Origin: a virus
Taxonomy: Duplodnaviria > Caudoviricetes
DNA length: 64,000 nt
Virus record (IMG/VR): IMGVR_UViG_3300021561_000002
Span: 10,471 to 74,470 of that record
Strand: one strand, 5' to 3'
In this document: positions 1 to 20,062 of the stretch, piece after piece
Layout: every line of letters begins with the position of its first letter
Position numbering within the stretch: position 1 is the stretch's first letter
The notes under the pieces: model-generated
Seen by the model: only the letters and a program-made list of their open reading frames with translations
The model's database searches: none
What the model was told of the DNA's origin: nothing
Position numbers and translations under genes: made by a program

Positions 1-128
1 CGCAACCCCGAACGGGAACAATAAACCAAAAATCACCGAGCGGCAAGTCGAGGAGCAACACAAAGTAGTTCTGGCGATGGGAACAGCGGCACGGTCGTTA
101 ATGCACTTCGATAGAAGGGAACAACGTC

Positions 129-377
129 ATGCCGCAGGGAAGTAACCCCATCGAAGTTCCTCTGTCCTCCCCGTCTGACCTCGCCAACGAGTTCAAGTAT
201 CTGACCGAGGACCAGAAGATAGTCAAAATCATGGAGATGATGAAGAACATCTATTTCGGCGAGTTGGTCATCAAGAAGCACAAGGGAAAGATTGCCGCTT
301 TCGACTTCAAGGGCCAGGTCTTGTTCCGGCTCGAAGAGTTCGACAAGGCCAAGGCGGCGAAGGCGGCGAAACTGTGA
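129..377 (+). CDS. small protein, YezD/DUF2292-like
   Basis: 82 aa; IxEMMKNIYFGELVIKKHKGKI resembles the DUF2292 pattern; GAAGGGA RBS; stop overlaps next start (GTGA). Confidence 0.45.
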   Translation: MPQGSNPIEVPLSSPSDLANEFKYLTEDQKIVKIMEMMKNIYFGELVIKKHKGKIAAFDFKGQVLFRLEEFDKAKAAKAAKL

Positions 378-3300
378 ACGATGCTCCCATGAGTTCCCAA
401 TTTGCCGGAGACCCCAGGGCTCAGTACCGTCTCCGCATGACAAAGAAGGTCGGCAACCGTATCGAGGAAGTGGACGTTCAGAAACCCGATGCGGCGGCCG
501 AAGAGGATATGATTCTTGCCGGGCTCGAAGGATTCCAGGGCGGCGGTACGGGCTTCGCTCGGTTCCTTGCCCAAGCCGCAAAACGCTCCTCGAATCCGAG
601 CTTCGGAGTGACCGGCGGATACATCGACGAGAATGGCGTCCCTCACACCGGCTCGGATGCCGTGCGCCAGCAGTCGGGTTCGACCGGCTTCGCCGATTTC
701 ATGCAACGTCAAGCCCTGAACCCCGATGGGAACAACGAGGAAGACCGTAGCGCCCCGGCGCATGGGTTCGGAGTCAGCGAAGGGGTGGACCCCACACGTG
801 GTCCAGAGCGTCGTCGTGAACCGGCGAATGATGGAGGAATGGCTCTCATGGGAGCCACTAATCGAGAACTTTATCCTCACGAGCCCGAGGAGTTGAACCG
901 CAACCCGTTCGGCAAAGGTCAGTCGAGTGATTCGTGCGGGGCGACGGCTTCGATGGGCAAAGAGGAAGTCATCAAGAAGCCTCTCCCCGAGCAGGTCCGT
1001 GGTGAAGGCGAAGGCACGGACCTCGTGAGCCGTTCGGGCCGTCGTCGTAGGATGGCGGCCGTCGATAGGAACGGGGCGTCAATCACCGACGGAGACAGGG
1101 TGAAGACCCCCGGTGGAGAAGTCGGGACGGTTGATTTCATCGACTACTCGACCTACCGGATTTACGTCACCCTCGACAATGGTTACGAGGGAGACTTTTC
1201 CTCGGGCGAACTTGAGAAAACCGCCGGGCGGAGAATGGCGGATGGCCCTCTCCCCAACTGGCAGTCCGAGCCCATCGACGACACGGATGTCCGTGAGCGA
1301 AACCGCCTCCCTGTCGTCGAGGACCCTTCCGGGCGTGACGTTCCGGGCAGGGAAGAAGAGAAGGCAACGCAGATTCCCCCACAGAAGTTCGACGACGAAG
1401 GCTCGTGGCCGACGCCCGGATTCTCCCAGGACTACCCTCAAGAAAAGGTGAGGAGCACCGAAATCATGGCGCATCAGGCGACACGTGTTCGCCTTGCCGA
1501 CGGGCGTGTTCTCGTCGGCAGAATCGCCTCGAACGACGGGTACATGGTGGAGTTCGTGGGGCGTATGGCCGGAGACAGGTCCGATGCCCGCTACTCCTTC
1601 CCGGCCCATGAGATTCGTGAGAAGGGTCCGTTCCGGGTTCGCCAGTCAGAACGTCGTGCGCCCGAGACCTTGGACGACGCCTATGCGGCTTTCAGGAGGG
1701 TAGGTAGCCGTGTCCCTTTCGGCCGTAAGGCGGTGAATAACGCAATGGCATCGAAGCGAACCGCCAAGACCATCGGCGCAATCCCGACGACGAAAGCCGG
1801 TGTGCCAATCAATCTTTACATCGAGGGCTTTGATGACGGTGAAGGGTTCTCCTACACCGAAGATGAGAGCAAGGCGATGGACATGGCGGGTTACGAAGGC
1901 GACTTCGAGATGATGCACCCCGAAGGAGTCATCATGAAAGTCTCTTCGGCCGGGAGAGGAGAAACCGTCCGTACCGCTCGCGTGGTGGCCCCTGATGCTC
2001 CGATGCTCTGCGATAAATGCAATCAGGAAATCCCTGTCAGCGGCGGTCTTATCGGCTTTTCCGTTACAGATGGGTATTACGCAAATGCTGACCTGTGCGA
2101 ATCATGCGCGAACGCCGTGGCGAAAGAGCAGGAACAGAAGTACGAAATGTTTCTCAACGAGAATGATGGCGATGAGGAATATGCGAAGCGGGATTACGAA
2201 CGCTGGCTCGAAGATGACGAGAGCGGCTCCCCGTTTACGGCCGAACGGTATCGTTATCGTTCGGCTTCTAGCGACGTGATTCCAGGGGGTCTCTCGGCCG
2301 GGCGCGGCGATGAAGAGTTCGACCCTCAATCTCTCCTTGATGGCAAGATGGTTGAGAGGGAACACACCGATGACAGGGACGTTGCGAAGGAAATCGCCAA
2401 GGACCACCTGACCGAGGACCCGGCATACTACGAGAAACTCAAGATGGTGGAATCCAGGACGGCCGGTGAAGGGACGCCTGGGTTCGACGTGGATGATGAG
2501 GTCATCGAAATCCTGCGTGCCGTCAAGAACCAGAATGACGGCGGCATTGGAAGCCACACGTTGAGCGAGTTGTCCGACATGGGACTCATGAATTTTTCTC
2601 CCGGCGTGGAGTCAACTCTTGAGCCCGGTCGTTGGTTCCTTACGGAAAAGGGAGAGGCCATGTTGAAAGCGGCGTCAGTCAGAACGGCGGACGGATTCTC
2701 AGCGAGCGATGACGAGGGCGACCCGATGGACCCCATCGTGCCCGGTCAACGCCGTCAATGCGATAAGTGCGGAGAGACGTATCTTCCGGCCACGCCCGAA
2801 GGTGGTCCCGCCGAGCGTGATGACTACTTGTGCGACAACTGTTACACCGAGAAGATGAAATCAAGGGGGCTGGCGATGGGCTCAAGGATTGCCGGTGCGA
2901 GTACCGCTTTCGACGTGACTCTGAACGGCGAGGTCATCGACACCGTTTATTACGACCAGGGTTCGACCGAAGAGACGGTTCGGCGTGACCTCATCGAACA
3001 CGACGGGTACGACCCGTCCATCAGCGTCACGAAACGTCAAGCCTCCAAGAAAACCGCTGAGGTCGATGTCGATACTCTCCAAAACGAGTTGGAGCCCGGC
3101 TTCATCGAGGACATCAAAAGGATGAGAGAAGAAGGAAAGTCCGATGACTATATTCGGTCGCTCTTTTCGCCTCATGCCGGTCCCGAACTTACGGAAGAGT
3201 GGATGGCGAGGGCTTCGTCCAAGCGTGTCGCCGCTGTCTCCGTCGGGGACCGCGTTCGCTATGCGAGTACCGCTTTCGACGTGACTCTGAACGGCGAGGT

Positions 3301-3799
3301 CATCGACACCGTTTATTACGACCAGGGTTCGACCGAAGAGACGGTTCGGCGTGACCTCATCGAACACGACGGGTACGACCCGTCCATCAGCGTCACGAAA
3401 CGTCAAGCCTCCAAGCGTGTCGCCGCCGTGGCGGCTCCCGACCGTAACGCCGGGGAAGACAAGTCCATCGGTGATGGTCAACTGTATGGCGATGACTCGG
3501 CCATGCGTGACCAGTTGAAAATCCGTGACAAGCGCCGCAAGGCCATGAAGGAGCGGTTGACGGCGATGCTTCGCACGGCCGTTCAGTTGGACAGGGCCGG
3601 GAAGCACGCCGAGGCCAAGGCCGTTGACCGGCGAATCGAGGCGATGTACGAGACCTGGAAGCGTGAGGGGAAGGCCATCGAGGGCCTCTCTAGCTTGATG
3701 TACCGTAGGTCTCTGTCCCGCATGGCGAGAGACAACAAGAAGTCCACGTTGTTCTTCCAGAATCAGGCCAAGGCTTCGCAAGACAACCCGTTCCTTTGA
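374..3799 (+). CDS. mosaic polyprotein 1 (putative internal head/cargo protein)
   Basis: 1141 aa; modules separated by KRTA/VRTA/SRTA/KKTA/KRVA; SH3-like, two CxxC..CxxC, DUF5661-like and wHTH-like modules. Confidence 0.7.
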   Translation: MNDAPMSSQFAGDPRAQYRLRMTKKVGNRIEEVDVQKPDAAAEEDMILAGLEGFQGGGTGFARFLAQAAKRSSNPSFGVTGGYIDENGVPHTGSDAVRQQSGSTGFADFMQRQALNPDGNNEEDRSAPAHGFGVSEGVDPTRGPERRREPANDGGMALMGATNRELYPHEPEELNRNPFGKGQSSDSCGATASMGKEEVIKKPLPEQVRGEGEGTDLVSRSGRRRRMAAVDRNGASITDGDRVKTPGGEVGTVDFIDYSTYRIYVTLDNGYEGDFSSGELEKTAGRRMADGPLPNWQSEPIDDTDVRERNRLPVVEDPSGRDVPGREEEKATQIPPQKFDDEGSWPTPGFSQDYPQEKVRSTEIMAHQATRVRLADGRVLVGRIASNDGYMVEFVGRMAGDRSDARYSFPAHEIREKGPFRVRQSERRAPETLDDAYAAFRRVGSRVPFGRKAVNNAMASKRTAKTIGAIPTTKAGVPINLYIEGFDDGEGFSYTEDESKAMDMAGYEGDFEMMHPEGVIMKVSSAGRGETVRTARVVAPDAPMLCDKCNQEIPVSGGLIGFSVTDGYYANADLCESCANAVAKEQEQKYEMFLNENDGDEEYAKRDYERWLEDDESGSPFTAERYRYRSASSDVIPGGLSAGRGDEEFDPQSLLDGKMVEREHTDDRDVAKEIAKDHLTEDPAYYEKLKMVESRTAGEGTPGFDVDDEVIEILRAVKNQNDGGIGSHTLSELSDMGLMNFSPGVESTLEPGRWFLTEKGEAMLKAASVRTADGFSASDDEGDPMDPIVPGQRRQCDKCGETYLPATPEGGPAERDDYLCDNCYTEKMKSRGLAMGSRIAGASTAFDVTLNGEVIDTVYYDQGSTEETVRRDLIEHDGYDPSISVTKRQASKKTAEVDVDTLQNELEPGFIEDIKRMREEGKSDDYIRSLFSPHAGPELTEEWMARASSKRVAAVSVGDRVRYASTAFDVTLNGEVIDTVYYDQGSTEETVRRDLIEHDGYDPSISVTKRQASKRVAAVAAPDRNAGEDKSIGDGQLYGDDSAMRDQLKIRDKRRKAMKERLTAMLRTAVQLDRAGKHAEAKAVDRRIEAMYETWKREGKAIEGLSSLMYRRSLSRMARDNKKSTLFFQNQAKASQDNPFL
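2896..3415 (+). repeat. 154-bp exact direct repeat (2896-3049 and 3262-3415)
   Basis: Identical DNA encoding ASTAFDVTLNGEVIDTVYYDQGSTEETVRRDLIEHDGYDPSISVTKRQASK. Confidence 0.95.
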
Positions 3800-3806
3800 G
3801 GGGCAC

Positions 3807-4520
3807 ATGCTGACCATTTCGGCTTCGATTTCCTACGACTCTAGGGGAAACATCCTGCACAAGGGCGACAGGGTGCTGGCACCGATACCGGTGTCGGATA
3901 CCTTTTCGGAGTTTTCCGTCGGTACGGATATGACGGATACTCTTGTGGAAGCTGAAATATACGATATTCTAGTGGGCAACAGGATTGCTGTCGTCCATCC
4001 CGAAGACAAGACCCTCGTGGTCATGGACTCGGGGAGCACGACCAAGGTGGACAAGCTGGTTCAGGTCGTGGAGCATTTCGAGGGCGACCAAATCGGTCGG
4101 ATGAACGAGGAGTCGGAGTTGGGCCGAGCGAGGCTTATGTCTCCGAAGGACGAACTCCTGAACGAAGTGGCTGACATCCTTCTCGACCTGATGAAGTCGG
4201 TCAAGAAGGTGGTCATGGCGACGGCCTACAACATCAAAAAGGTGGAGAGCGTCGTTACCGCCAGGACCGGTCGTGTCATGGAGGGCAAGGTCGAAGCTGA
4301 AATTCACGTTGCCGACATGATGATGAAAAGGAAGTCCAAGCTGTACGTGGAGTTGTTGGTGCGAGAAGGGACTGTGCAGACACCATTCGGGTTCAGCACC
4401 TCGGACGGAAAGCAGTTTCCGTTCAACGAGGCTGGTATCCGAAAACATTTGAATATCCCGCTGGAACCGTACATCGGAAAGAAACCATCGGGCGCTGTCA
4501 TGTCGTACAGAAAAGATTAA
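3807..4520 (+). CDS. hypothetical virion-associated protein
   Basis: 237 aa, GAGGG RBS; N-terminal KGDRV SH3-like start. Confidence 0.6.
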   Translation: MLTISASISYDSRGNILHKGDRVLAPIPVSDTFSEFSVGTDMTDTLVEAEIYDILVGNRIAVVHPEDKTLVVMDSGSTTKVDKLVQVVEHFEGDQIGRMNEESELGRARLMSPKDELLNEVADILLDLMKSVKKVVMATAYNIKKVESVVTARTGRVMEGKVEAEIHVADMMMKRKSKLYVELLVREGTVQTPFGFSTSDGKQFPFNEAGIRKHLNIPLEPYIGKKPSGAVMSYRKD

Positions 4521-4532
4521 AGGAGCCGAAAG

Positions 4533-5900
4533 ATGCCGCCTGTCAATGCGCCTCTCACCGCCGACGCCACGATGCAGGTCCCTGCGACCTCCGTGGATTT
4601 CCAGGGCCAGAAGGGTAACTCCTTCGAGCTTGGCCTTGGCGTCAACATCCAGCCGTGTAACAACATCGTTGGCATGAACACGACCTCCGTGGTCGTCGCT
4701 TCTCAGGCCAACGTCGCCGTAGCCAGCGCCCTCGAAAACGGGGACGTGGTTGACGGCGTGACTCTCGCCACCGGCAACCTCGTGTTGCTCAAGGCGCAGA
4801 CCGACCCCAAAGAGAACGGTGTGTACGTGGTGCCCGCCGCTGGTGCCGCCTCCCGCTCCGCTTCCTTCGGGGCCTATGGCCTGTCGTACCACCGGACGCC
4901 CGTTCGTGTCTTGGGCGGCACGGACGCCGGGAAGATTTTCCTTCAGGCGACCCGTGGTGCCATCGTGGTCGGGACTACGCTCGTGACGTTCGAGGAGTTC
5001 GTCGGGCAGTTGGAGCACCAAGCCGACATCCTCGATGCCACCAAGGAAGCCCTGAACCGTCAGAACGTGAAGCCGTGGCACTCGATTTCCCGCCCTCGCT
5101 GGACGGATGGCATCCTGAGTTTCGACAATCAGGTCATGGAGGGTTTCTACCCGAAGGACAACGTGCGCTTGGCGACCACCGCCGCTCACGGCCTGTCCGG
5201 CCTTGCGGCCATCGACGGTGTGACCCCCGTGGCTGGCGACCGCATCCTGGTCAAGAACGGCACGACCTCTCCGTCGCTCTATACCGCCTGCCGTTGCTCG
5301 TCCGTCGGTGCGAACATCGTTCTCGCCAGCGGCCTTGAGAACGGCGACACGCTCGATTCCCTCACGCTGGCGACCGGCGACCGTGTTTTGGTCAAGGACC
5401 AGACCGACCCCATTGAGAACGGCATCTATGTCGTTCAGGCTTCGGGTGCGGCCGTCCGTGCGACCGACATGGACGTTGCGAGCGAGGTCATCCTCGGGAA
5501 GGGCGTGACCGTCACGGAAGGGACGAACGCCGGCAAGTATTACGCCGTGTCCGCCGTCCCTCATACGATGGGCGTCAACCCGCTGACCTTTGCGCTGTCT
5601 TCGGCCGCCTTGCTTGCGGCCGTCGCCAACGGCATCTACGTGGCCGATTCCGGCTCGTGGTCCCGCTCGGCCGACGCCAACACTTCGGCGGAAGTCCGCA
5701 ACGGGATGACGGTGTTCGTGACGGAGGGCGCGGCGAACGGGGAGAAGTCGTTCTTCATCAGCACGGCGGACCCCTTCTATCTCAACGTGACTCCTCTCGC
5801 CTTCAACAACCTCACGGACGTTCTCACCGAGAACATCGTGAACCAGCCGACCGATACGGTCAAGAATGCGTCGGACGCTGGAATGTACCGGTCGCTGTAA
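4533..5900 (+). CDS. head/collar fibre-like structural protein with repeated modules
   Basis: 455 aa; about 3 copies of the (I/V)DGVTLxxGDR(I/V)LVKxQTDPxENG(I/V)Y module common in phage fibres. Confidence 0.65.
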   Translation: MPPVNAPLTADATMQVPATSVDFQGQKGNSFELGLGVNIQPCNNIVGMNTTSVVVASQANVAVASALENGDVVDGVTLATGNLVLLKAQTDPKENGVYVVPAAGAASRSASFGAYGLSYHRTPVRVLGGTDAGKIFLQATRGAIVVGTTLVTFEEFVGQLEHQADILDATKEALNRQNVKPWHSISRPRWTDGILSFDNQVMEGFYPKDNVRLATTAAHGLSGLAAIDGVTPVAGDRILVKNGTTSPSLYTACRCSSVGANIVLASGLENGDTLDSLTLATGDRVLVKDQTDPIENGIYVVQASGAAVRATDMDVASEVILGKGVTVTEGTNAGKYYAVSAVPHTMGVNPLTFALSSAALLAAVANGIYVADSGSWSRSADANTSAEVRNGMTVFVTEGAANGEKSFFISTADPFYLNVTPLAFNNLTDVLTENIVNQPTDTVKNASDAGMYRSL

Positions 5901-5928
5901 GACCGGGTTTTTGCAGGGCATCTTCGGC

Positions 5929-5957
5929 GGGTCCGCTCTCTTCTTGAGGGCGGACCC
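5929..5957 (+). terminator. GC-rich stem-loop (12-bp stem), terminator/processing candidate
   Basis: GGGTCCGCTCTC-TTCTT-GAGGGCGGACCC in intergenic gap; no clear U tract. Confidence 0.45.
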
Positions 5958-5975
5958 CCTCCTTCGAGGACATCA

Positions 5976-8900
5976 ATGGATAGGGCTACCCGCAGGGCAC
6001 TCCGTCGGAATACCTACGCTCTCATGGCCGAGCGAGTTCGTAGGGAGGCTCAGGTCAGCGTGACCGAAGAATGGGCACCGGATGGTACGGTGAAACGCAC
6101 TACCAAGATGGACAACTCGATGCCCGGAGAGGCGGAGTTGCTCCTGAAGATGTTGTCGTTGGCTCCGCCCGAGGCGGCGGAGGTCGTGAACGATGCGAAG
6201 GCCAAAGGCATCTTGCCCGAGGGGAATCCTGCGCCCGCTCCGACCGAGGAAGTAGTGGCCGAGCAGGGTCCGGCGATGCAGGAGGACGACCAGGCGGACG
6301 TGAAGGGTCGAGTCTCGGAAGGAAAGAAGGATTTTCGGGCCTCCGGTAAGAGGTCGTTCTATCCCGACGTTTTGATGCACAAGGTTTTCAACGTTGACGC
6401 TCCCGTGACGGCCTCAAAACGCACCGCCGATGATAGTGGTGTGTTTGCCGAGGGAGACTTAATCCGGGTGACTCGTGGCGGATACGCCGGTTTGACCGGG
6501 AAGGTTCTCGGGTATTCCAGAAACGATGCGTATTCCGTTCAGCTTGATGGAGGCCAGCCTGGCGATGGGAAGGGCGGGCAATGCGAGTTCTACTCTTCGG
6601 AGATGGAGAAGACCGCTTCCAAGCGTACCGCCGAACTCCGAATCAAAACGACCTACGAGGTCGTGACTCCCGAGAGTGCCGAGGCCGGTGACTTCGAGGA
6701 GACTGGCTGGCACGACGAAGTGGGCAAAACCTTTTCTAGTGTCGAGGAGGCCGCCTCGTTCCTTCGCAACGAAGGGGCCACCGAGTATTCGGACAGCCGA
6801 CCCGACTTCAACCAGGGCTATCGTGGATGGTACATCGGACAGCCCGACAATGATTACGAGACCGGGGCCGAGACCACGAAGAACTACCACCTGGAAGGTT
6901 TCTCTTCTGATGACGCCAGGGAACTCCACAAGCTCGTCACGGGTCAGGATACGCCTCCCATCGACCACGGCCAGCAGGAGATGTTTGCGGCGAAGCGGGT
7001 TGCGGTAACGAGGGAAGATTTTGTCAATGCGGCCACCGAACAATACTTGAAAAGTGGCGTCTCCTACGACGAAGCAAGACAGTATGCGGAAGACGATGCT
7101 GATTACATCGAGGGCCCGGCGCCAGAATTTACCCGATATGTGCATGGCCCCTTCGATAAGGCTTCATCGAAACGCACCGCCTCGTTCCAAGTCGGCGACC
7201 GGGTTCGCATTACGCAGTACGAACACGCCGGTAAAGAAGGTGAACTCGGTTCGACCAACGATTACACGAACAAAGTCTTGGTCATCTTGGACGATGGGAC
7301 TCGTGTTCGTGTCTGGCCAGGAGACCTTGAGAAGGTTGGCTCTAGGCGTACCGCCTCGTTCCAGGTAGGCGACAAGGTTCAAACGAAAGACGGGCGTTCC
7401 CCGATTTTCAACGTTGTCGAAGAATCCCGTGAGCGTGGCGACGGGTTTACGGTTTATGACCGCCTCGTTGTCGTCGAGGCTAACGGTCAACGGTACGAGA
7501 TGAGCGAGAAGGACTTGGTGAAGGTTGCATACAGCCGTTACTCCGGCGACCCGTTTTGGATGAAGGTGAAGTATCCCACGACCTGTAAGCGGTGCGGAAA
7601 GTCCGTCCAGCCAGGCGAGGAGGTTTTCCGGTTCAAGGACGGCTCGATGTATTGCGACGCCCCTGATTGCGGTCAGCGGGAGTCGAACTCTTTCAATGCG
7701 TCGGCGCAGGACGAAGCCATGTTCGGCGGAGGCATGGACGAAGGCATGATGGAGTTCGGGTCGAAGCGCGTGGCCGCTGATTGGGAGTCTCTTCTTCGCA
7801 AGCAGAGAGACGCCGAGGGATACGTGGCCGCAATCAAGGACACCCGTGGCGGGGAAACGTATTGGGGCAAGTCCGGCGAGACGCACAAGGAACTCATCTT
7901 CCGGGTTTTCATGGAACAGAGCGACGACAAAAAAGACGTTCGGAATCTCATCATCGCGTTGGATATGTACGGCATCGGAAGCGGCCCATTCTCGCACATC
8001 GAAGCGGGATTCGTTGACCCCGAAGAGGGGCGTTTTCTATCTCAAGACGAGATGCAGAACCGCATGGGCGGAGGAGGCAAGGGGAGAATCATTACGGAAT
8101 ACCTTCCCTCTTACCAGACCGCCGCGAAGCGCACGGCGCAGTCCACCCGCGAGTACCTCGAAACCTTCTTCGAGGAGAAACAGCTTCCTCATCAATCGTG
8201 GGACATCACGGACCAGAACGGGACCATGCACTACATCGACAGCGATGTGGTCATCGAGGCCCTGCTCAACGCTCCACCGCAGGAGCAGGAACAAGCGGCC
8301 AACATCATCCGCAAAATCGACTTCATGAACGGTGACGTGAACCACTTCCTGAAACATCTTGCGACCGGGCTCGTCATGAACTCCTCGGGAGGTTCCGAGA
8401 TTTTCGCCATGAGGCGTTCTCTGAAGACCGCCGGATACTCCGTCCGTAAGGGAACCAAGGCTGAAATCGAGGCCATCTATCCTTCCCTTCAGATGGTGTC
8501 GGCCAGCGGGGAAGCGAACTTCAGTAAGCCCTCTTTCGCATCCATCGAGGACGAAATCTCCATCGGCGACAATGGCTCGGTCACGGTGTTCAAGGGACCG
8601 GACCGCTCTGGCGTGACCGGCAAGTGGTGGGAGTTGGAAGGCGTTCCGGTCGAAGTGTACGACCGCACGGCCTCCAAGAGGCAAGCCGATTTCAAGGGCG
8701 GGGAGCGTGTGAAGATAAACAGCGACTTCGCGGAGTTTCCCTACGGTTTTGTGGAAAGCGTCAATGATGACGGAACCGTGAAAGTCGTTTACGACAACGA
8801 GGGAACTTGGGGACATGGAATTGGTCCCGCGAGAACGTTCTATCTCAATGAGTTGGAAAAGACTTCTTCCAAGCGTAAGGCTGATGACAGCCGTGTTCCT

Positions 8901-9233
8901 CAAGTCGGCGACACCGTCGGCAAGGTGACGAAGGTGGCGACCAAGAAGGAAGAGGGCGCGGTTCAGGCCCCGGTCGAGGTCCACAGCATCGACGACACCA
9001 AAATCCAGACGTGGTTCGAGCGCGACCGTCAGCATGTGGCTCTCGTGGACGCCGAGACCGAACAGAATACCATCATCGAGTGGTGGGACGAGGCCGTGAC
9101 GGAAGCGGTGGAGGATGGTTTCCTGGACCCTCGTGACTATCACGGTTCGGCCTACGACTACGCCAAGAGTAATGGCCTCCTCATCGAGATGCCGTATGAA
9201 CAACCGACGTGGGACGAAGCCTTTAGCCTGTGA
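5976..9233 (+). CDS. mosaic polyprotein 2 (putative internal head/cargo protein)
   Basis: 1085 aa; ASKRTA, AKRVA, SSKRTA, GSRRTA, LKTA, SKRQA linkers; 4 SH3-like modules, one Zn-binding module. Confidence 0.7.
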   Translation: MDRATRRALRRNTYALMAERVRREAQVSVTEEWAPDGTVKRTTKMDNSMPGEAELLLKMLSLAPPEAAEVVNDAKAKGILPEGNPAPAPTEEVVAEQGPAMQEDDQADVKGRVSEGKKDFRASGKRSFYPDVLMHKVFNVDAPVTASKRTADDSGVFAEGDLIRVTRGGYAGLTGKVLGYSRNDAYSVQLDGGQPGDGKGGQCEFYSSEMEKTASKRTAELRIKTTYEVVTPESAEAGDFEETGWHDEVGKTFSSVEEAASFLRNEGATEYSDSRPDFNQGYRGWYIGQPDNDYETGAETTKNYHLEGFSSDDARELHKLVTGQDTPPIDHGQQEMFAAKRVAVTREDFVNAATEQYLKSGVSYDEARQYAEDDADYIEGPAPEFTRYVHGPFDKASSKRTASFQVGDRVRITQYEHAGKEGELGSTNDYTNKVLVILDDGTRVRVWPGDLEKVGSRRTASFQVGDKVQTKDGRSPIFNVVEESRERGDGFTVYDRLVVVEANGQRYEMSEKDLVKVAYSRYSGDPFWMKVKYPTTCKRCGKSVQPGEEVFRFKDGSMYCDAPDCGQRESNSFNASAQDEAMFGGGMDEGMMEFGSKRVAADWESLLRKQRDAEGYVAAIKDTRGGETYWGKSGETHKELIFRVFMEQSDDKKDVRNLIIALDMYGIGSGPFSHIEAGFVDPEEGRFLSQDEMQNRMGGGGKGRIITEYLPSYQTAAKRTAQSTREYLETFFEEKQLPHQSWDITDQNGTMHYIDSDVVIEALLNAPPQEQEQAANIIRKIDFMNGDVNHFLKHLATGLVMNSSGGSEIFAMRRSLKTAGYSVRKGTKAEIEAIYPSLQMVSASGEANFSKPSFASIEDEISIGDNGSVTVFKGPDRSGVTGKWWELEGVPVEVYDRTASKRQADFKGGERVKINSDFAEFPYGFVESVNDDGTVKVVYDNEGTWGHGIGPARTFYLNELEKTSSKRKADDSRVPQVGDTVGKVTKVATKKEEGAVQAPVEVHSIDDTKIQTWFERDRQHVALVDAETEQNTIIEWWDEAVTEAVEDGFLDPRDYHGSAYDYAKSNGLLIEMPYEQPTWDEAFSL

Positions 9234-9254
9234 TTCCAAAGCCGTAAGGAGAAG

Positions 9255-12200
9255 ATGATGCGTACTCGCAAGACAGCCTTGACCGAGCAGTCCTTCAAGC
9301 AATCCCTGGAAGGAAAGGAGTTTATGTCTCCTTCCTGCGGAGGTCCAGTCCGCATCAATGGAGGGCGTGTCGTCCTCAATGGGTACGAGGACGTGACCGA
9401 TTCCTGTGATTGGTCGAAGCTCATGGACGAATACCAGGCGTGGAATATCGGCGGAGCGTATCAGCGCATGACGGCAAGCGACGCCAGCACGGAGTCTTCC
9501 AGGTACATCGCCCATATCGGGGACCGGGTTCGGTATCAGACCGAGGACGGCTCCGAGGGCGAGGGCATCCTTCAGGACGTTCAACTCGGGATGGACAATG
9601 GTTTCCATGACAACTTCTACATCATCAAGAAGGATGATGGCGAAGAGGCTCGAATCCCAACTTTCAGCCTGCTCATGTTCCAGAAGGTCTCCATGAAGAA
9701 AACCTCCGACATCAATCCCGATGATTACAGCTACGAGACTTACTACGATGAAATCGGAAAGCTCGACAGCGAAGGCCGCGAGGTGCGTTGGCTCAACGTT
9801 AACCGAACCGGCCCGAAAGGCTCGCATCAAGTCGCATCCATTCCCGTTCATGAAGGCCAGACTGACCCGATGAGGCTCATCGAAGACCTGAAGGCCGTGG
9901 ACCGCATGGGCATGGAAGGCAGGGAATGGTCCGAGGCGTTCAATCGGGTGTTCGATAAGTACATGGTCCCTGGCATGGACGCCGTAATCTCTGCGAGTGG
10001 GATGGGCGAGTTGTATCGTTATTCCTCCGAGATGAAAAGGACCGCTTTGACCGGCTGGCTTGAAGGGATGACCGAGGACGAAGTCAAGGGGATGCCGGTT
10101 CAAGTGGTCTTCGAGGACCCGAGTGGTCGTGGCCTGAAGAGCGAGGAATATCCGAACTTCCAAGCCGCTCTTTCGGCGGGTCATGATTTCATCCGTCCGA
10201 ACGATTGGCAGAATGCGATGAAGGGGGTTTCTTACGAGACCAATGCCACGGTTCTCCGATTCGAGAGCCCGGAAGCGTACCGCATTCTTTCTGCGTCGAA
10301 GAGGGTTAGGGTTGCGTGGTCAGGTCCGGTGAAGGTCGTGACCGACTCCTGCGACTGGTCGAAGCTCATGGACGAGTCTCAGGCGTGGAGCCTCGGCGGG
10401 GCGTACAATAAAATGGTCGCCAATAAAAAGACGGCTGGCGCTACCGACATGGATGGGCAACCCATCGAGGTCGGAGATAAGGTTCGCGCTCAGTCCCTCT
10501 ACAACGTTTCCGAAGGAGAGGGCCAGACGCACGATGGCGGAACGGGAGTCGTGACGGAAATCAACGAACTCGGTCAAGTTCGCGTGAAGTGGGATGCTGG
10601 CTCCGAGGGAACCGGGGCCGACTGGAACGAGGGGGCCACTTTGTATGTGCGTCCTTCCGTTCAGATTTACGAGCCGTTTACCGGAACGAAGGTTCATGGC
10701 TCCATGACCGATGACCAGACTCGCGAGCAGATTCTCTCCTTCGTCAAGGACTGCAAGGAGAAGGGGCGTAGCCGTACCGAGTGCATCTCCGACGCCTGTT
10801 TGCAGTACCGTGGCATGGACGACGCGGTGTACGAGGTCGTGGACGAAGTGTACGGGAAGAACTCGAACGTGTGGGCTTCCAAGAAGACCGCCGCTGACGA
10901 GAGTGCCCTGAAGTTCTCCGCGACCGTCGTCGAGGACACCAACGACCCGAACGGTAGCGAGGGGATGTTCTTCGTCGATGTGAAGTGCACGGGGCCGGAT
11001 GGCACGGTCGGCGAGTGGAGTGAGTGGTATCCCGAAGCCGATGCCAAGAGGTATAGCGGCTTCATCAACCAGAACCCGACGTTCCAATACATGCAGGAAC
11101 ATCGCGGTTCTCCCGAGGCGGACATGATGCACGAGGCATGGCAGGATTTCCGGTCCAAGGGTGGTCAACTCTACGCTTCCCGTAAGCCGAAACTCGGAGA
11201 CCATGTTACCGGCATGAGTATCACCCTGGCCGGTAAGAACATCCGTGTGGCGGGTGTCCTGCTTCGCAATGAGTACGAGGACATCTACACGGTTCGCACG
11301 GCCAACGGGGACTACCCCGTCATCGAGCGTGACCTGAAGAGCGCCCCGAAGAAGTACGCCTCCATCGCCGACGAAATCCAAGACCTCAAGGGGCGGAAAG
11401 AGATGCTTGAGGTCGAGTATGACTCGGCTGAGACCGACGACCAGAAGGCGGCGTTTACCGCTCGCATCGACGAACTGGACCGGGAAATCAATGCTCTCGA
11501 AGCCAAGACCGCGATGACCGACCCGACGTTCTTCGGCCACGGTTTGAAGTGCGCCGAAATCGAGGGCGGCAACACCCCGACCTTGACTTCTCCTTCGACC
11601 GAGGAAATCTCGGACAACGCCGACGTTCCTCTCTCCATGCGCCCCAAGGGGGAGCCCGGCGAGGGCTCGGAGTACCGAACGAAGATTTCTAGGAGACGCC
11701 GCACGGCCGAAGACGCCATCAAGGCCGGAGATGACGTGGTGGTTTTTGCCGACGCCGCTCACGAAATCGGTCAGTACGGCGGTAAGGTCGTTGAGGTCAA
11801 GCCCAACGGCTATGCGATGGTCGAGAGCTATAAATTCCCAGGAGACCCGGAGGAAGTAGGGCTTGCCTGGGTTGAGAAAATCAGCCCCGAAGAGGCCGCT
11901 GATTGGGGCAAGGTCGGCTCGAAGCGAATCGCCGGACATAGGAGACGCCGCACGGCCGAAGACGCCATCAAGGCCGGAGATGACGTGGTGGTTTTTGCCG
12001 ACGCCGCTCACGAAATCGGTCAGTACGGCGGTAAGGTCGTTGAGGTCAAGCCCAACGGCTATGCGATGGTCGAGAGCTATAAATTCCCAGGAGACCCGGA
12101 GGAAGTAGGGCTTGCCTGGGTTGAGAAAATCAGCCCCGAAGAGGCCGCTGATTGGGGCAAGGTCGGCTCGAAGCGAATCGCCGGACAAACCATCTGCCGC

Positions 12201-12908
12201 AAATGCGGGGCCGTGTTTGTTCCGACCACCGACGACCCCGTTGAAGAGGCCGAGGACCTGGGATGGGAAATCGGGCAGATAGGCGGATACTTCACGTTCG
12301 AGAGGGAAATCGGGCAGATAGGCGGATACGTCACGTTCGAGAATAGCCTGTGCCCCGATTGCCGTAAACGCCGTAAGTCCGGCTCCGTTCGTTCCGCCGA
12401 CAACGGTGCGGCCCCCACGATAGGCGGCGCTCCCGAAGGTCTCGATGACGTTGAGGGCGAAAAGAAAACGGCCGAGGTTGAACTCGATGAGAACATCTTC
12501 GAGAGCGAGGATGATGCTCCTCACCGTTTCCGTGGCGAGGAGAAGGACCAGTCAGTCATGCGTTCATCTTCGGACGGGGCCAAGGGCTACCAGTCAAGCG
12601 GGCCGTTCGTTGCCCCTCCCTCGGCGTTGCCGGGCGCGTATGCCTCTTGCCCGACCGGCATCCCGAAGGACGTGAAAGATGAAGTCATCGACGAATACGG
12701 CAAGGACAGCCCCAAGACCTACATGACCTTGAACAAAATCAAGGACGACATGAAGGAGGGCAAGACTGCCTCGTTCATGGGGGACCAGATGGACGAAATC
12801 TTCAAGGCCAAGGTCGAACAGTACGTGGCCGAGGGGATGAGTGAAGAAGAGGCCAAGAAGAAGGCCGAGGATGCGGTTCTGTCCGAATACTCCTTTTGGG
12901 CGGACTAA
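9255..12908 (+). CDS. mosaic polyprotein 3 (putative internal head/cargo protein)
   Basis: 1217 aa; RKTA, KRTA, KKTA, RRTA, KRIA linkers; 5 SH3-like modules, one Zn ribbon. Confidence 0.7.
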   Translation: MMRTRKTALTEQSFKQSLEGKEFMSPSCGGPVRINGGRVVLNGYEDVTDSCDWSKLMDEYQAWNIGGAYQRMTASDASTESSRYIAHIGDRVRYQTEDGSEGEGILQDVQLGMDNGFHDNFYIIKKDDGEEARIPTFSLLMFQKVSMKKTSDINPDDYSYETYYDEIGKLDSEGREVRWLNVNRTGPKGSHQVASIPVHEGQTDPMRLIEDLKAVDRMGMEGREWSEAFNRVFDKYMVPGMDAVISASGMGELYRYSSEMKRTALTGWLEGMTEDEVKGMPVQVVFEDPSGRGLKSEEYPNFQAALSAGHDFIRPNDWQNAMKGVSYETNATVLRFESPEAYRILSASKRVRVAWSGPVKVVTDSCDWSKLMDESQAWSLGGAYNKMVANKKTAGATDMDGQPIEVGDKVRAQSLYNVSEGEGQTHDGGTGVVTEINELGQVRVKWDAGSEGTGADWNEGATLYVRPSVQIYEPFTGTKVHGSMTDDQTREQILSFVKDCKEKGRSRTECISDACLQYRGMDDAVYEVVDEVYGKNSNVWASKKTAADESALKFSATVVEDTNDPNGSEGMFFVDVKCTGPDGTVGEWSEWYPEADAKRYSGFINQNPTFQYMQEHRGSPEADMMHEAWQDFRSKGGQLYASRKPKLGDHVTGMSITLAGKNIRVAGVLLRNEYEDIYTVRTANGDYPVIERDLKSAPKKYASIADEIQDLKGRKEMLEVEYDSAETDDQKAAFTARIDELDREINALEAKTAMTDPTFFGHGLKCAEIEGGNTPTLTSPSTEEISDNADVPLSMRPKGEPGEGSEYRTKISRRRRTAEDAIKAGDDVVVFADAAHEIGQYGGKVVEVKPNGYAMVESYKFPGDPEEVGLAWVEKISPEEAADWGKVGSKRIAGHRRRRTAEDAIKAGDDVVVFADAAHEIGQYGGKVVEVKPNGYAMVESYKFPGDPEEVGLAWVEKISPEEAADWGKVGSKRIAGQTICRKCGAVFVPTTDDPVEEAEDLGWEIGQIGGYFTFEREIGQIGGYVTFENSLCPDCRKRRKSGSVRSADNGAAPTIGGAPEGLDDVEGEKKTAEVELDENIFESEDDAPHRFRGEEKDQSVMRSSSDGAKGYQSSGPFVAPPSALPGAYASCPTGIPKDVKDEVIDEYGKDSPKTYMTLNKIKDDMKEGKTASFMGDQMDEIFKAKVEQYVAEGMSEEEAKKKAEDAVLSEYSFWAD
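11690..12187 (+). repeat. 249-bp perfect tandem duplication (11690-11938, 11939-12187)
   Basis: Two in-frame copies of RRRRTAEDAIKAGDDVVV...WGKVGSKRIAG. Confidence 0.95.
12265..12342 (+). repeat. 39-bp tandem duplication, one mismatch
   Basis: EIGQIGGY(F/V)TFE twice, inside a Zn-ribbon module. Confidence 0.9.
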
Positions 12909-14515
12909 TGAACAAGACCGCTACCATCTTCGATAAGAGTGGGCTCATTGCCCTTCAGCTTGGAATGACCGTTGAGGTTCAGACCAATCCGTACTGGTAC
13001 GGAGAAATCGTGGACATCGAAGGTCGTGAGGGACAAGAGAAGGTCGAGGTCGAAGGTCTCCATGAACCGAAGAGGGAATGGGTCTCGGTTAAGGACGTAG
13101 TGGCGTGGAAGGGCAAAACTGAAGGCTCGAAGAGGACTGCCATGTTCAACAAAGGCGACCGCATCAAGTTCGTTGGCGACTTCCCGGCTGGCTCGGTCGG
13201 CGAGAAGTATCGCAATGAAGGGTCGGAGGGCGTCGTTCAGGGAGAGGGATACGACCCCGATTATTTCGACCTTGAGGGCAACGGTCCTACGGGTAGCGAT
13301 GGTCAATACTCCGTCCTCATGGATGACGGGTATGACCTCATGGTGCCGGAAAAGAACTTGGAGAAGGTGGCCTCGATGAATAAGACATCCGCTATCGACA
13401 GTAATGGTCAGGAACTCAAAGTCGGCGATATGGTCCGGGTGTTAGGCTTCGCAGGAGAGACAGTAGAGGCCGAAGTCACGAGCGTCACCGAAAGGCAAAT
13501 CCAGGTCTCTTGGGTTGAGGACGGGATGAAGATGGCGACGAACATCTGGACCGATGGGCGTAGCAAAATTGAAAAGGTTGCCGCTTGGCGGTCGGGCAAT
13601 CACCTTCGCCTCGCCTCCAAGAAGACCGCATGGAACCCCGAAGGAACCGATGCCACTCCGAATGCCGAAAAAATCATGCGGGCTTTCGATGATGTCGAAA
13701 GAGAAACCGGTGCTCAGTCCGGCACGGCCGTCCGTGAGGAGCCGTGGGCCTCGAAGTTCCTGGCCCACTTTGTTGCTGACGGTTGCAAACCGGCGAGCGA
13801 CGACGACCTGAAGGCCCTCGAAGATTACAACTATCACTCGGCCATCTACATCCTCACGATGAACGGACTCGTGACCGGGAACTACTACACGAAGTCCACT
13901 TATGGCTCGAAGAAGACCGCCAGCGAACTCACCGACGCCATCGGGGAGCCCATCCTGGTCGGCGACAAAGTTCTCGATACGGAGACGGACGAAGAGGGCG
14001 ATGTCATCGAGGTTTCAGGCGTCGAGGCTTTCATCGAATGGTTGTCTTCCGGTCGTCAGGAGTGGACGACGGGCGACATGCTCGTCAAGGCCATGAAGAA
14101 GGAAGCCGAATACTTCGAGGACGAAATCTTCGATGAGGACACGACCGACGACGAGGGCGCTTTCAACCCGAACTCTTCTTCCGCCGTGAGTCATTCGTTC
14201 GCCGTCGGAGACATCCTTCATGGTTCCTTTGGGTATGACGAGACCCACAACTACTTCGCAGAGGTCACGGGCCTCGTGGGGTCCTCTACGTTACTCGTTC
14301 GCCCAATCTCTTACGAGCAGGTCGGGGAGATGGAAGACAGATTTTCAAGCAGGGTTCGTCCGATTCCCGGAAAATACATTGGCCCCGAGGTTCGTACGAG
14401 AGTTAACCGTAGCGGGAACTACGCTAAGGTTCCGGTTCCGAACATTAGCGAAATGATGTCGGCCAGCAAGTGCAATCCGAGCGACACGTTCTACGCCTCG
14501 TCTGGTTTTCATTGA
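12908..14515 (+). CDS. mosaic polyprotein 4 (putative internal head/cargo protein)
   Basis: ATG overlaps upstream TAA; about 535 aa; NKTA, SKRTA, EKVA, SKKTA linkers; 5 SH3-like modules. Confidence 0.7.
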   Translation: MNKTATIFDKSGLIALQLGMTVEVQTNPYWYGEIVDIEGREGQEKVEVEGLHEPKREWVSVKDVVAWKGKTEGSKRTAMFNKGDRIKFVGDFPAGSVGEKYRNEGSEGVVQGEGYDPDYFDLEGNGPTGSDGQYSVLMDDGYDLMVPEKNLEKVASMNKTSAIDSNGQELKVGDMVRVLGFAGETVEAEVTSVTERQIQVSWVEDGMKMATNIWTDGRSKIEKVAAWRSGNHLRLASKKTAWNPEGTDATPNAEKIMRAFDDVERETGAQSGTAVREEPWASKFLAHFVADGCKPASDDDLKALEDYNYHSAIYILTMNGLVTGNYYTKSTYGSKKTASELTDAIGEPILVGDKVLDTETDEEGDVIEVSGVEAFIEWLSSGRQEWTTGDMLVKAMKKEAEYFEDEIFDEDTTDDEGAFNPNSSSAVSHSFAVGDILHGSFGYDETHNYFAEVTGLVGSSTLLVRPISYEQVGEMEDRFSSRVRPIPGKYIGPEVRTRVNRSGNYAKVPVPNISEMMSASKCNPSDTFYASSGFH

Positions 14516-14541
14516 CGAGAATTGATGGTATAGGTACAGTA
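14512..14541 (+). promoter_or_regulatory. sigma70-like promoter upstream of portal with partial operator
   Basis: TTGACG-N17-TACAGT; overlaps TGGTATAGGTA; -35 overlaps the TGA of the preceding ORF. Confidence 0.6.
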
Positions 14542-14557
14542 GAACGAAGGGGAAACA

Positions 14558-17431: not shown

Positions 17432-17508
17432 GGTCCATTAAGACCATTCAAGCCTGTCTTCATCCAGAGGAACACGCCGACCATGTATGCCATTGCGGCA
17501 TCACACGG

Positions 17509-19047
17509 ATGGCGTTGTCCGAGTGGCAAGACGGACTCTCCCGAACACGGCTTGATTCCAATACCATCCGGCATATCGTTGAACTCGAACAGTCGGTGTC
17601 CGAACACTACGACAAGGGCGGGGCGGACTTCGTTGATTTCCTCATGGACATCTATGAGAAGAAGGGTGGCATCCAGCCCGAAGACCTGAATCAAGCCTTC
17701 CTGTCCTCTTACTACAACGTGACCCAGGACATCTCGACTCCGTACACGCTCTATTACAAATCCATCGTTGACTCCGGCCGGGACCGTGCCCTCAAGGACC
17801 TCGGAATCGAACGTGAGGCCCGCCGCAAGATGCGTCGGACGGCCGCTATCGGTGACACGTACATCCAGGACAGCCTCGACAAGTCCTTTAGCCAGGTGAA
17901 GACCGTTGGCGATGAGGTCATCAAGCAGTTGACCGATAAGTGGACCGAGAGCGGCGGCACGAGCAATGTGGTCATGGACCTGCTCAAGGAATACGAGGAC
18001 GAGGCAAGGGACGAGGGCCTGACCCGTCAGCAGTTGAGGCAAAAGCTCTATGAGATTTGGCAGGGCAAGAGGTTCCTGCTCGAACGCATCGTGCGGACCG
18101 AGACCGTGAACACCTACGCCCGTGCTCAACTGCAAGAGTGGTACGAGCAAGGCGTGAGGAAAGTTGAGCGGCACGAAATCAAGGACATGCGTACCTGCCC
18201 GCTTTGCCGGGACACGCTGGATGGGAAAATCTACGACGTGGAGATGTTGCTGAACGGTGGATATGTAAACCAGGAGACCGGAATCTCAAGCGCCGCATAT
18301 CCCATCTCGTTCGACTCGCATCCCAACTGCCGTGGGTCGTACACGCCTATCGTGAACTGGTCGGTATTCGAGGAGTTCGAGAAACTGTACCTTGAGCCCG
18401 ACGCTTTGACGGAGTTCCAGAACGCAAGCGACGTGGTGACTCAGGATTCCAAGGCCGAGAACGTTCCAATCGAGTACCAGGAGCAGGTTCAGCGAGCCCT
18501 TGAGGATTTCGGGCCTGACTATCGGCTCCGGTTCGTGCCGGAGATAACGGAGTCTCCTGAGTGGCAAGAAGACCGCCTGCATGACCTACGGTACTACTAT
18601 TCCGAGGGGGAGGCCCAGGCGCACCTGAATCTTGAAAAAGGGGAAAACAGGGGCAAGCTGGTGCAATATACGTCCAGGAGCGGTACTGTCCTGGTCAGCG
18701 GTAGCGCCGGGAACGTGAACGACGTGGTTGTCCCCATCCTGCGGGAACACGCTCATCAGGCTTGGGGAGCGGCGGAGGAAGAGAAGAAGGCTTGGGTCAT
18801 TGAGCGGTACAAGAACAAGATGGAAGAGATGGAGTTCACTCTCGAAGAAGAGGGCGTTCAAATCATCGGCGACACGCCGTTCGTTTCTCCGATTGCGAAG
18901 GAGAGCCCCGAGGATTATTTCGTCGAGTGCTACGCCGCATACGTGGCCGACCCGACGACTTTGCTCTACTTCGACGAACCTTTTTATGATTTCCTTCGAG
19001 CCAACTTCATCAACCGTGAGTACATCGCTCGTGGAGGCGTGAATTGA
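17509..19047 (+). CDS. head morphogenesis protein (MuF/SPP1 gp7-like) with C-terminal zincin-like domain
   Basis: IVRTETVNTY, TCPLC, HPNCRG MuF motifs; C-terminal ILREHAH and SPEDYFVECYAAY; start codon uncertain. Confidence 0.8.
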   Translation: MALSEWQDGLSRTRLDSNTIRHIVELEQSVSEHYDKGGADFVDFLMDIYEKKGGIQPEDLNQAFLSSYYNVTQDISTPYTLYYKSIVDSGRDRALKDLGIEREARRKMRRTAAIGDTYIQDSLDKSFSQVKTVGDEVIKQLTDKWTESGGTSNVVMDLLKEYEDEARDEGLTRQQLRQKLYEIWQGKRFLLERIVRTETVNTYARAQLQEWYEQGVRKVERHEIKDMRTCPLCRDTLDGKIYDVEMLLNGGYVNQETGISSAAYPISFDSHPNCRGSYTPIVNWSVFEEFEKLYLEPDALTEFQNASDVVTQDSKAENVPIEYQEQVQRALEDFGPDYRLRFVPEITESPEWQEDRLHDLRYYYSEGEAQAHLNLEKGENRGKLVQYTSRSGTVLVSGSAGNVNDVVVPILREHAHQAWGAAEEEKKAWVIERYKNKMEEMEFTLEEEGVQIIGDTPFVSPIAKESPEDYFVECYAAYVADPTTLLYFDEPFYDFLRANFINREYIARGGVN

Positions 19048-19406: not shown

Positions 19407-19407
19407 A

Positions 19408-19578
19408 ATGTTTAAGAAGGCAGGAGCAACTCCGACGGGGCGTATCGAGGCCGTTGGCACCCTCGAACCCAAAGACGTTCCCATCGAGAAAAGCGCGAGT
19501 GCAGAAGCCACCCGCAAGCAGGTCGCCGACAGCATCAAATGGCAACCGACTGGCGGAGGGACGCAGGATGACAAGTAA
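19408..19578 (+). CDS. small hypothetical protein (56 aa, absent from ORF track)
   Basis: MFKKAGATPTGRIEAVGTLEPKDV...DDK; GGGAG RBS; fills the gap. Confidence 0.55.
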   Translation: MFKKAGATPTGRIEAVGTLEPKDVPIEKSASAEATRKQVADSIKWQPTGGGTQDDK

Positions 19579-20062
19579 TGCCTCTCTTCTTTTCAAAAAA
19601 GTAGCCTTATGGCAGAAGGCCGGGCAGGTCAGCGCAAGCGACCAGTCCATCTCGACCCGCATCGGCGAAGCGGCTTTGGCCCGTGAGATTTCCGCTCTCG
19701 ACAAGAAGGCCATGCTTGAGTTCAAGGACGAACTCAAAGTGGCCGTCGCCTGTTTGAAGATGGCCGACTCTTTCGCCACCGCCCGCCGTACCCGAAACCC
19801 GAAGACCGCCGCCGAGGCCGAGACGCTCGATGCGCTCATTCAGGGCGTCGATGACCTCACGGATGTCATCTCGACCTCCGGCGATGAGAACCTCGTGATG
19901 GTCCAGAAGATGCTCTCGGACTTCCTCATGGAACTCAAGACGAGCAACCAGACGACCTCCAAGGAGCAGGAAGACTACGAGCGCGCCGACGCTCGGCCGG
20001 AAGTCGCCATCGGTCCCAAAGCCGAACCTTCGAGCAACGAGGAGCGCACGAATGTTGGTTAA
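19568..20062 (+). CDS. hypothetical helical head-associated protein
   Basis: 164 aa from ATG 19568 (GGAGGG RBS); contains KKVA, PKTA motifs. Confidence 0.6.
   Translation: MTSNASLLFKKVALWQKAGQVSASDQSISTRIGEAALAREISALDKKAMLEFKDELKVAVACLKMADSFATARRTRNPKTAAEAETLDALIQGVDDLTDVISTSGDENLVMVQKMLSDFLMELKTSNQTTSKEQEDYERADARPEVAIGPKAEPSSNEERTNVG

Follow-up and report, generated by a model that had tools for sequence, protein, structure and literature searches.

We report that a 64,000-nucleotide (nt) stretch of DNA from a tailed phage (IMG/VR record IMGVR_UViG_3300021561_000002, positions 10,471 to 74,470; hereafter the window) carries, directly upstream of its portal gene, four giant open reading frames (ORFs), here named A, D, E and F, in which small protein modules are strung on a recurring basic linker peptide. 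The sequence analysis suggests, with chances that we put at about even, that these ORFs encode cargo polyproteins which are loaded into the phage head and cut after the alanine of each linker by the prohead protease. The window is the final 64 kb within a 74.5-kb contig and encodes structural genes of a contractile-tailed phage, the nearest cultured relative of which is the 498-kb Bacillus phage G (38% identity for the capsid protein and 33% for the protease domain). The genes for the portal, MuF protein, protease-scaffold protein, cement protein and capsid protein follow each other in this order, which is identical in phage G, and no relatives of the capsid protein were detected among the 185,579 prokaryote genomes searched.

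The four ORFs comprise 1141, 1085, 1217 and 539 amino acids (aa), respectively, and the sum of 3,982 aa agrees with the approximately 3,980 aa given in an initial annotation of the window. The same annotation proposed that a basic motif recurs between the modules and would be enriched relative to other genes, which was borne out. Specifically, the strict pattern [KR][KR][TVIQK]A is present in 29 copies in A, D, E and F (7.3 per 1,000 aa) compared with five copies in the 15,811 aa encoded by the other + strand ORFs (0.32 per 1,000), i.e. the rate is 23 times higher, and shuffled cargo sequences contain on average 1.2 copies (maximum 6). The pattern S[KR][KR]xA occurs 17 times in the cargo ORFs and twice elsewhere, and the fuller linker consensus reads [AGS]-[SM]-[KR]-[KR]-[TVIQK]-A. 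The initial estimate of 45 to 50 instances was somewhat high, since a relaxed pattern gives 41 cut sites; cutting at these would generate 36 fragments of at least 25 aa (2.4-34 kDa), of which 30 are acidic, with a median isoelectric point (pI) of 4.5 when the basic tag is omitted. Moreover, the codons of the motif vary synonymously in the cargo ORFs, which indicates that the constraint acts on the peptide and not on the DNA; a DNA-level signal, such as an internal start, a recoding signal or a recombination site, is thereby ruled out as the main constraint. Scanning positions 1-15000 for promoters and terminators gave matches at chance level.

Polyprotein A (374..3799, + strand, 1141 aa) is acidic (pI 4.9) and has seven strict linker sites (12 nt each, starting at nt 1754, 3032, 3047, 3221, 3398, 3413 and 3533), together with RRMA sites at aa 225 and 286. 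Polyprotein D (5976..9233, + strand, 1085 aa) has nine strict linkers (starting at nt 6417, 6621, 6993, 7170, 7344, 7764, 8127, 8676 and 8871) and degenerate ones, e.g. KVA at approximately aa 519 and LKTA at approximately aa 819. In polyprotein E (9255..12908, + strand, 1217 aa) the strict sites start at nt 9267, 10035, 10425, 10881, 11697, 11922, 11946, 12171, 12462 and 12855, the first of these (aa 5-8) being located right behind the start Met. Polyprotein F (12908..14515, + strand) more likely starts at the ATG at 12908, with a 1-nt overlap with the E stop codon (535 aa), than at the TTG at 12896 (539 aa); it begins with M-N-K-T-A, has strict sites starting at nt 13130, 13619 and 13910, and relaxed NKTA/NKTS sites at aa 2-5 and approximately aa 158-161. 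For E and F we found no homologues in cultured phages, nor with a word-index search; E has modules in common with one of the giant ORFs (4206-8438) of the metagenomic relative L003. There are approximately ten modules per ORF. The N-terminal part of D (5976..6416, + strand, aa 1-147) is a conserved leader domain, the first 120-147 aa of which recur, and always at the N-terminus, in the polyproteins P0001, P0002, P0005, P0069, L003 909-4202 and that of L043. This recurrence makes the leader a candidate head-targeting, loading or anchoring domain; in an AlphaFold model its aa 1-80 have predicted local distance difference test (pLDDT) values of 66-87.

The positions of the linkers relative to the modules were best revealed by homologues of single modules. 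D was compared with 1.8 billion representative proteins in a full HMMER search, which yielded 1,287 matches, and the D modules at aa 221-321, 509-586, 722-802 and 1004-1070 each have many complete, stand-alone homologues of 70-135 aa. When projected on D, the N-termini of these stand-alone proteins have medians at aa 218, within the K-R-T-A motif at 216-219, and aa 720, within the motif at 718-721, while their C-termini fall 5-10 aa ahead of the next motif. The stand-alone homologues examined do not carry the linker motif, which rules out that it is an integral part of the modules. Stand-alone homologues, for which the initial annotation suggested a search, do exist in other phages (47-135 aa), beginning within about two residues after the linker, and the linkers separate the modules rather than lie within them, as also seen in the model of D and in the comparison with L043 (see below). 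In the cultured phages where we inspected the surroundings, the stand-alone genes belong to arrays of small hypothetical genes, e.g. BirdsNest gp98 (88 aa), vB_Pae-SS2019XI gp063 (103 aa) and PAK_P3 gp082 (47 aa); the latter sits behind an annotated promoter and resembles the A module at aa 845-1011 (phrog_6353). The ends of BLAST segments between the polyproteins of the window and those of its relatives have a median distance of 8.5 aa to the linkers compared to 30 aa for random positions. However, since the alignments run through linkers that are similar to each other, these ends are only loosely tied to them, and the projection of stand-alone homologues is the cleaner edge test.

The AlphaFold model of D places eight of the nine strict linkers in or at stretches with pLDDT below 50, in a model where 49% of the residues score that low, and this coincidence is only mildly significant (our estimate is ~0.02). 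Just one module of D was backed by a deep alignment in this modelling, and the model, with a mean pLDDT of 54.7 overall, is good at aa 722-802 and poor elsewhere; a single MAFFT alignment over all D modules stacked unrelated short families.

The same type of site is present in the proteins of the head itself. The portal protein (14558..17431, + strand; phrog_16240, E 1e-56) has a candidate site, R-R-S-A, at aa 35-38 (nt 14660-14671), and the longer G-T-R-R-S-A of the window corresponds to G-S-M-R-T-A in L003, in both cases right before the conserved core A-D-V-A-L-T-S-P-E. Likewise, in the MuF/SPP1 gp7-like minor head protein (17485..19047, + strand, start uncertain; Pfam Phage_Mu_F E 3e-6, phrog_115) M-R-R-T-A is found at nt 17833-17844 and M-K-R-A at the same position in L003. 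The major capsid protein (23160..24134, + strand; 38% identical to phage G gp27, phrog_2522) has a candidate propeptide (aa 1-48, nt 23160-23303, + strand) that ends with R-K-E-A, and this alignment column, approximately 20 aa before the conserved N-arm, reads V-R-E-A in L003, R-K-E-A in L010 and M-K-R-A in L011. A profile built from 19 strict linkers was scanned over all ORFs in the window, and four of the six best matches outside the cargo ORFs fall in the protease-scaffold protein, which accounts for approximately 5% of the residues scanned. Moreover, head-assembly proteins have nine copies of [KR][KR]xA in 2,938 aa and the other genes nine copies in 11,666 aa (Fisher p = 0.004), where shuffled sequences predict 4.6 and 9.2 copies, respectively. 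More telling than these counts is that the sites are retained at their positions across relatives whereas neighbouring residues diverge. In phage G, K-x-A-[SA] sites are present in gp4, gp5, gp7, gp9, gp11, gp13, the N-terminus of the portal gp14 (aa 55), the protease gp19 (at both ends of its protease domain) and gp21; they are not found in the terminase or the capsid protein. This suggests that phage G, the only cultured megaphage, shares the same cleavage code; the multi-omics paper on phage G from 2025 gives no cleavage sites.

The putative enzyme is encoded 5.5 kb downstream as a separate gene, and scans with Pfam, PHROGs and NCBIfam gave no peptidase match in A, D, E or F. The ORF at 20052-22619, which had been annotated as a protease as a whole, does encode one, though only in residues 1 to approximately 240 (the prohead serine protease domain, 20052..20831, + strand; core aa 44-233), and the remainder (20832..22619, + strand) is scaffold-like and has [KR]-x-A sites. 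The AlphaFold model of the core has pLDDT values of 80-96, and on the basis of this model the protease has the fold of T4 gp21 and assemblin: in VIA-align it matched T4 gp21 (5jbl_A; Z 9.9, root mean square deviation 3.0 over 128 of 165 residues) and the assemblins of varicella-zoster virus (1vzv_A; Z 7.8) and human cytomegalovirus (8j3s_A; Z 6.6), with unrelated entries at 5.2 or less. Searching BFVD gave 128 matches with E ≤0.001, with phage G gp19 at E 1.7e-16 and a prohead protease name for several of the 50 best entries listed, while a protease-family profile gave no match to PDB sequences and Foldseek against PDB returned only weak ones. The candidate catalytic residues His93 (nt 20328-20330) and Ser148 (nt 20493-20495) are invariant in 24 family members (alignment A2), and across the same 24 members K-[KR]-x-A or K-T-A is present approximately 10 aa before the catalytic core. 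In the scaffold part, the [KR]-x-A sites at aa 267, 515, 551, 584, 734 and 827 are conserved in position in L003 (54% overall identity), and the scaffold genes beside distant members of the protease family are likewise rich in the motif. T4 gp21 becomes active when it cuts off the first nine residues of its own chain, which otherwise obstruct the active site (PMC9958956), and the conserved site before the protease core fits such a self-activation scheme.

The data favour that the scissile bond is the one after the Ala rather than the A/G-S bond four residues earlier, because the N-termini of the stand-alone homologues coincide with the Ala. A cut at this position is plausible for an enzyme of this fold, by analogy with herpesvirus assemblin, which has the same fold and cuts after Ala. 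That the linker is a prohead-protease site, as the initial annotation had it, is supported by its place at the module edges, its absence from stand-alone homologues, the sites in the head proteins and the fold of the protease; the comparison with T4 gp21 and phiKZ gp175 made in the same place holds only as an analogy, given that the motif here ends with Ala and not with Glu.

That the four proteins instead stay uncut, as giant multidomain virion or late proteins of the polyvalent type in which the hexapeptide is a spacer, a contact to DNA or to an acidic partner, or a sequence for cassette exchange, we consider unlikely. In keeping with such a role, the motif constitutes the sole basic patch in very acidic modules, the break points of exchanges and duplications are at or near linkers, and cutting right behind the start Met of E and F would gain little; the virion RNA polymerase of N4 and certain polyvalent proteins of plasmids also travel uncut (PMC5512222). 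A spacer leaves unexplained, however, why the Ala is invariant and why there is a small residue two positions before the basic pair, and it does not account for residues that are fixed while their codons vary. Nor does it explain the single conserved sites in the portal, MuF and capsid proteins and at the N-terminus of the protease, which extend to relatives with protease identities down to 29%.

Comparison with relatives of the window indicates that the modules turn over while the linkers are kept in one of several variants. The 6-kb metagenome contig L043 has orthologues of D and of the two ORFs upstream of it, and its D is 81% identical to that of the window in the leader and 95.7% identical over 281 aa. 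Nevertheless, five modules of the window (aa 152-521) are missing in L043, and other modules replace aa 803-897, with break points within approximately 20 aa of linkers; the L043 protein mixes the linkers A-S-K-R-T-A, A-S-K-K-V-A and A-M-K-K-K-A. In L003 (portal 79% identical) the linkers of three giant ORFs upstream of the portal read A-M-K-[KR]-K-A, and A-M-K-K-K-A is also the linker in the metagenomic polyproteins P0001, P0004, P0006 and P0007, while other metagenomic polyproteins carry one linker variant or the other. More distant relatives include L005 (portal 40% identical), which has fewer sites of the type G-Q-R-K-[TQ]-A, and L010 (protease 29% identical), which has a 964-aa ORF with S-S-K-K-V-A and related sites and where both the scaffold and the capsid protein carry [KR][KR]xA. 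Within the window, a perfect 249-nt tandem duplication (11690..12187, + strand, 100% identity, spacing 249) in E comprises exactly one module of 83 codons plus its linkers, and A contains a perfect repeat of 154 nt (2896-3049 and 3262-3415, 366 nt apart); these perfect repeats stem either from an amplification of modules that is very recent or from an error in the assembly.

Concerning the modules themselves, the initial description as unrelated units of 50-110 aa needs correction: their sizes range from 25 to approximately 300 aa, and they are not all unrelated, since approximately one third is KOW/SH3-like. A Pfam KOW match (PF00467) was obtained for D aa 159-184 (28.5 bits, cut-off 22.3), and with a hidden Markov model built from six KOW/SH3-like modules, 8-10 such modules were detected in the four polyproteins; further ones can be recognised by eye. 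Apart from KOW and a DUF5661 at aa 660-694 in A, scanning the four polyproteins with Pfam, PHROGs and NCBIfam gave only families of no assigned function. Pfam applied to ten stand-alone homologues returned only a zinc finger, VIA-align with the D model gave only generic helical matches (Z ≤6.3), and the ESM Atlas search with the modules gave no usable match.

This composition bears on whether the products would have any role in the host. They could be cut by the prohead protease and yet be core or scaffold material for the assembly of a very large capsid that is expelled in pieces or remains as inert filler, which we regard as rather improbable. The scaffold part of the protease ORF contains the motif as well, the polyproteins are acidic as scaffolds are, many modules have one repeated KOW/SH3-like fold, and in T4 the core protein is mostly digested after assembly (PMC9958956). 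Against this, at least five module families occur as complete small proteins on their own in phages whose heads are unrelated, encoded in arrays away from structural genes, which weighs against a role as filler; moreover, relatives that are nearly identical differ in their module content, which would be unusual for components of assembly, and folded domains of 7-15 kDa would be unlikely to exit through the capsid pores. Finally, we regard it as very unlikely that a different enzyme, be it a protease of the host or one of the phage that escaped recognition, cuts the linkers, or that the cutting happens outside the capsid, to yield ordinary late cytoplasmic proteins: many cellular proteases do use basic-pair sites and a gene for a zinc peptidase (gp2) is located close to the head genes of phage G, but the motif, including its conserved single copies, is shared specifically with typical prohead protease substrates, the genes lie inside the head-gene block directly before the portal, and family scans, which covered the head genes and larger ORFs, revealed no second peptidase (all other parts of the window, and the 10 kb that precede it in the contig, were only translated).

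For cleavage by the prohead protease we propose the following course of events. The polyproteins would enter the prohead together with the protease-scaffold fusion, possibly through the leader of D or through linkers that dock on the protease-scaffold protein. The protease, probably a His-Ser enzyme and fused to the scaffold, would recognise the basic hexapeptide [AGS]-[SM]-[KR]-[KR]-x-A and cut after its Ala. Once the shell has formed, cutting would affect the scaffold, the capsid propeptide, the N-termini of the portal and MuF proteins, the protease's own N-terminus and every linker, such that the four precursors would be converted to approximately 35 small, mostly acidic and independently folding modules of 2-34 kDa. 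These folded modules would be retained in the shell, where they would be compressed along with the DNA, and would exit via the tail upon infection.

Several points weigh against this proposal. It is built on an uncultured contig, from sequence and models, and the enrichment of the site in head proteins outside the scaffold is modest (nine observed compared to 4.6 +/- 2.1 in shuffles). In the D model, which is poor overall, the linker at aa 716-721 is part of a helix. The modules, which the initial annotation took for host-takeover or counter-defence effectors, gave no match to an effector or anti-defence family in Pfam, PHROGs, NCBIfam or the structure searches, and the one fold that accounts for about a third of them could point to a structural role. 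As a shared sequence the linker could drive recombination between modules and be kept for that reason. T4 gp21 cuts after Glu, at (L/I)-x-E, and the phiKZ-type protease motif also ends in Glu; the consensus [AGS]-[SM]-[KR]-[KR]-x-Ala departs from the T4 (L/I)-x-Glu, and cutting after Ala would rest on the herpesvirus analogy and the alignments. Finally, in E, F and L003 4206-8438 the motif begins within one to four residues of the start Met, where a cut would free only 5-8 residues, which fits a tag or a targeting role as well as a site of cutting.

Since cutting alone does not explain a motif directly after the start Met, the linker may also be a loading tag. A wider scheme, which we put forward tentatively and hold to be doubtful, is that the linker has a dual role, first as a multivalent capsid-targeting signal whose copies dock in the substrate groove of the protease-scaffold fusion and load the polyprotein, and later as the site of cutting; that the phage injects approximately 35 pre-made small acidic proteins which other phages have to transcribe from early genes first; that the modules are re-dealt near linkers; and that the system is the counterpart of RNA-virus polyproteins, with an Ala code common to the phage G protease family. 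If the linkers are indeed cut in the capsid, four genes would suffice for dozens of pre-made small proteins to reach the host with the DNA, before transcription. This would give both a function and a delivery route to small phage protein families that are now hypothetical, provide a basic-x-Ala cleavage code for the protease family of phage G and large actinophages, and provide a model from nature for packing proteins of choice into capsids.

Polyproteins A and D are separated by two ORFs that are free of the motif. ORF B (3807..4520, + strand, 237 aa) lies upstream of ORF C and has no match in the Pfam and PHROGs family scans; its orthologue in L043 is immediately upstream of the orthologues of C and D. 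ORF C (4533..5900, + strand, 455 aa) encodes a repeated virion fibre/head-decoration-like domain and matches phrog_24595, phrog_2647 and phrog_11518 (E 1e-43 to 1e-46). This repeated domain of approximately 90 aa is common to the ORFs at 4533-5900, 27818-32635 and 34370-35365, and the PHROGs that it matches carry annotations of head decoration, virion structural or tail fibre proteins; C is thus one carrier of the repeat positioned inside the polyprotein cluster. Between the C and D orthologues, L043 has an additional 251-aa gene (2513-3268) with repeated H-S-E-E-S-R-R-K-type motifs, which is NUMOD3-type homing endonuclease-like and absent from the window. The portal gene of the window carries a 354-aa intein (15617-16678, portal aa 354-707) with a LAGLIDADG-type endonuclease (Pfam LAGLIDADG_3, aa 592-655); it runs from Cys to His-Asn followed by Thr, and is absent from the L003 portal (here 69% identical), where the sequence is continuous across the site. 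Further family and PHROGs matches identified the cement protein (22676-23146), the tail sheath (35378-37147) and the baseplate wedge (44948-46411). ARAGORN predicted a tRNA-Ser gene (anticodon tga; 37031-37124, minus strand) antisense to the 3' end of the tail sheath ORF, which may be a false call. In L010, a protein of more than 1,000 aa is encoded in the structural block approximately 7 kb downstream of the protease gene (18526-21296), with Pfam matches to DUF5710, 2_5_RNA_ligase2 and, weakly, Acb1; from these matches it is a candidate for a classical polyvalent-type protein with a possible domain against the cyclic oligonucleotide-based antiphage signalling system (CBASS).

Among known systems, phage G has the same gene order, and its gp4, gp5, gp7 and gp11 precede the portal gp14 and carry K-x-A-[SA] sites; there, however, each protein has few sites, in which a single Lys replaces the basic pair, and modules are not strung together densely. 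Herpesvirus assemblin has the same protease fold (Z 6.6-7.8) and an Ala before the cut, often with Ser or Ala after it (the site of its maturational cleavage is (V/L/I)-x-Ala followed by Ser; Welch et al. 1991, cited in PMC5512222), but it acts at two sites, on its own precursor and on the scaffold, with no cargo polyprotein and no basic pair. The internal proteins IPI-III and Alt of T4 have a capsid targeting sequence, are loaded into the prohead core and trimmed there by a protease of the same fold, which shortens itself at the N-terminus too, and are ejected together with the DNA (PMC9958956, PMC9026906). In T4, one short N-terminal peptide is removed from each single-domain protein, whereas here approximately 40 internal sites ending with Ala would split four giant precursors. 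In phiKZ, 201phi2-1 and SPN3US many head proteins, ejected ones included, have a short motif for the protease gp175/gp245, some within multi-site propeptides, and those cleavages that were identified for SPN3US substrates remove N-terminal propeptides (Thomas et al. 2012; PMC10052503); the difference here is a bead string of modules which elsewhere are encoded by stand-alone genes, and which is not described for those phages. Nor is it described in a review of jumbo phages from 2026, which mentions neither polyproteins nor polyvalent proteins. The latter are proteins of phages and conjugative elements with 2-15 or more distinct domains, encoded near virion genes, for which co-delivery with the DNA and proteolytic release have been proposed (Iyer et al. 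2017, PMC5512222), and they resemble the present ORFs in having many independent domains in one polypeptide, a location beside virion genes and a content that varies between relatives. They are built on hubs (MPTase, ArdC-N, ART, SNF2, methylase, DdrB-ParB), while the modules here are small and non-enzymatic, and none of the hub or effector domains of the polyvalent network (MPTase, ArdC-N, ART, SNF2, methylase, DarA-N, DdrB-ParB, MuF fusion) was found in A, D, E and F by Pfam, PHROGs or NCBIfam. Moreover, their processing is predicted to depend on an embedded zincin-type or, rarely, a C-terminal assemblin-like peptidase, of which there is none in our ORFs, and the fixed hexapeptide linker that matches the sites in the phage's own head proteins is a further difference. 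The system is like polyvalent proteins, T4 internal proteins and the head proteins of phiKZ and SPN3US, yet lacks defining features of each.

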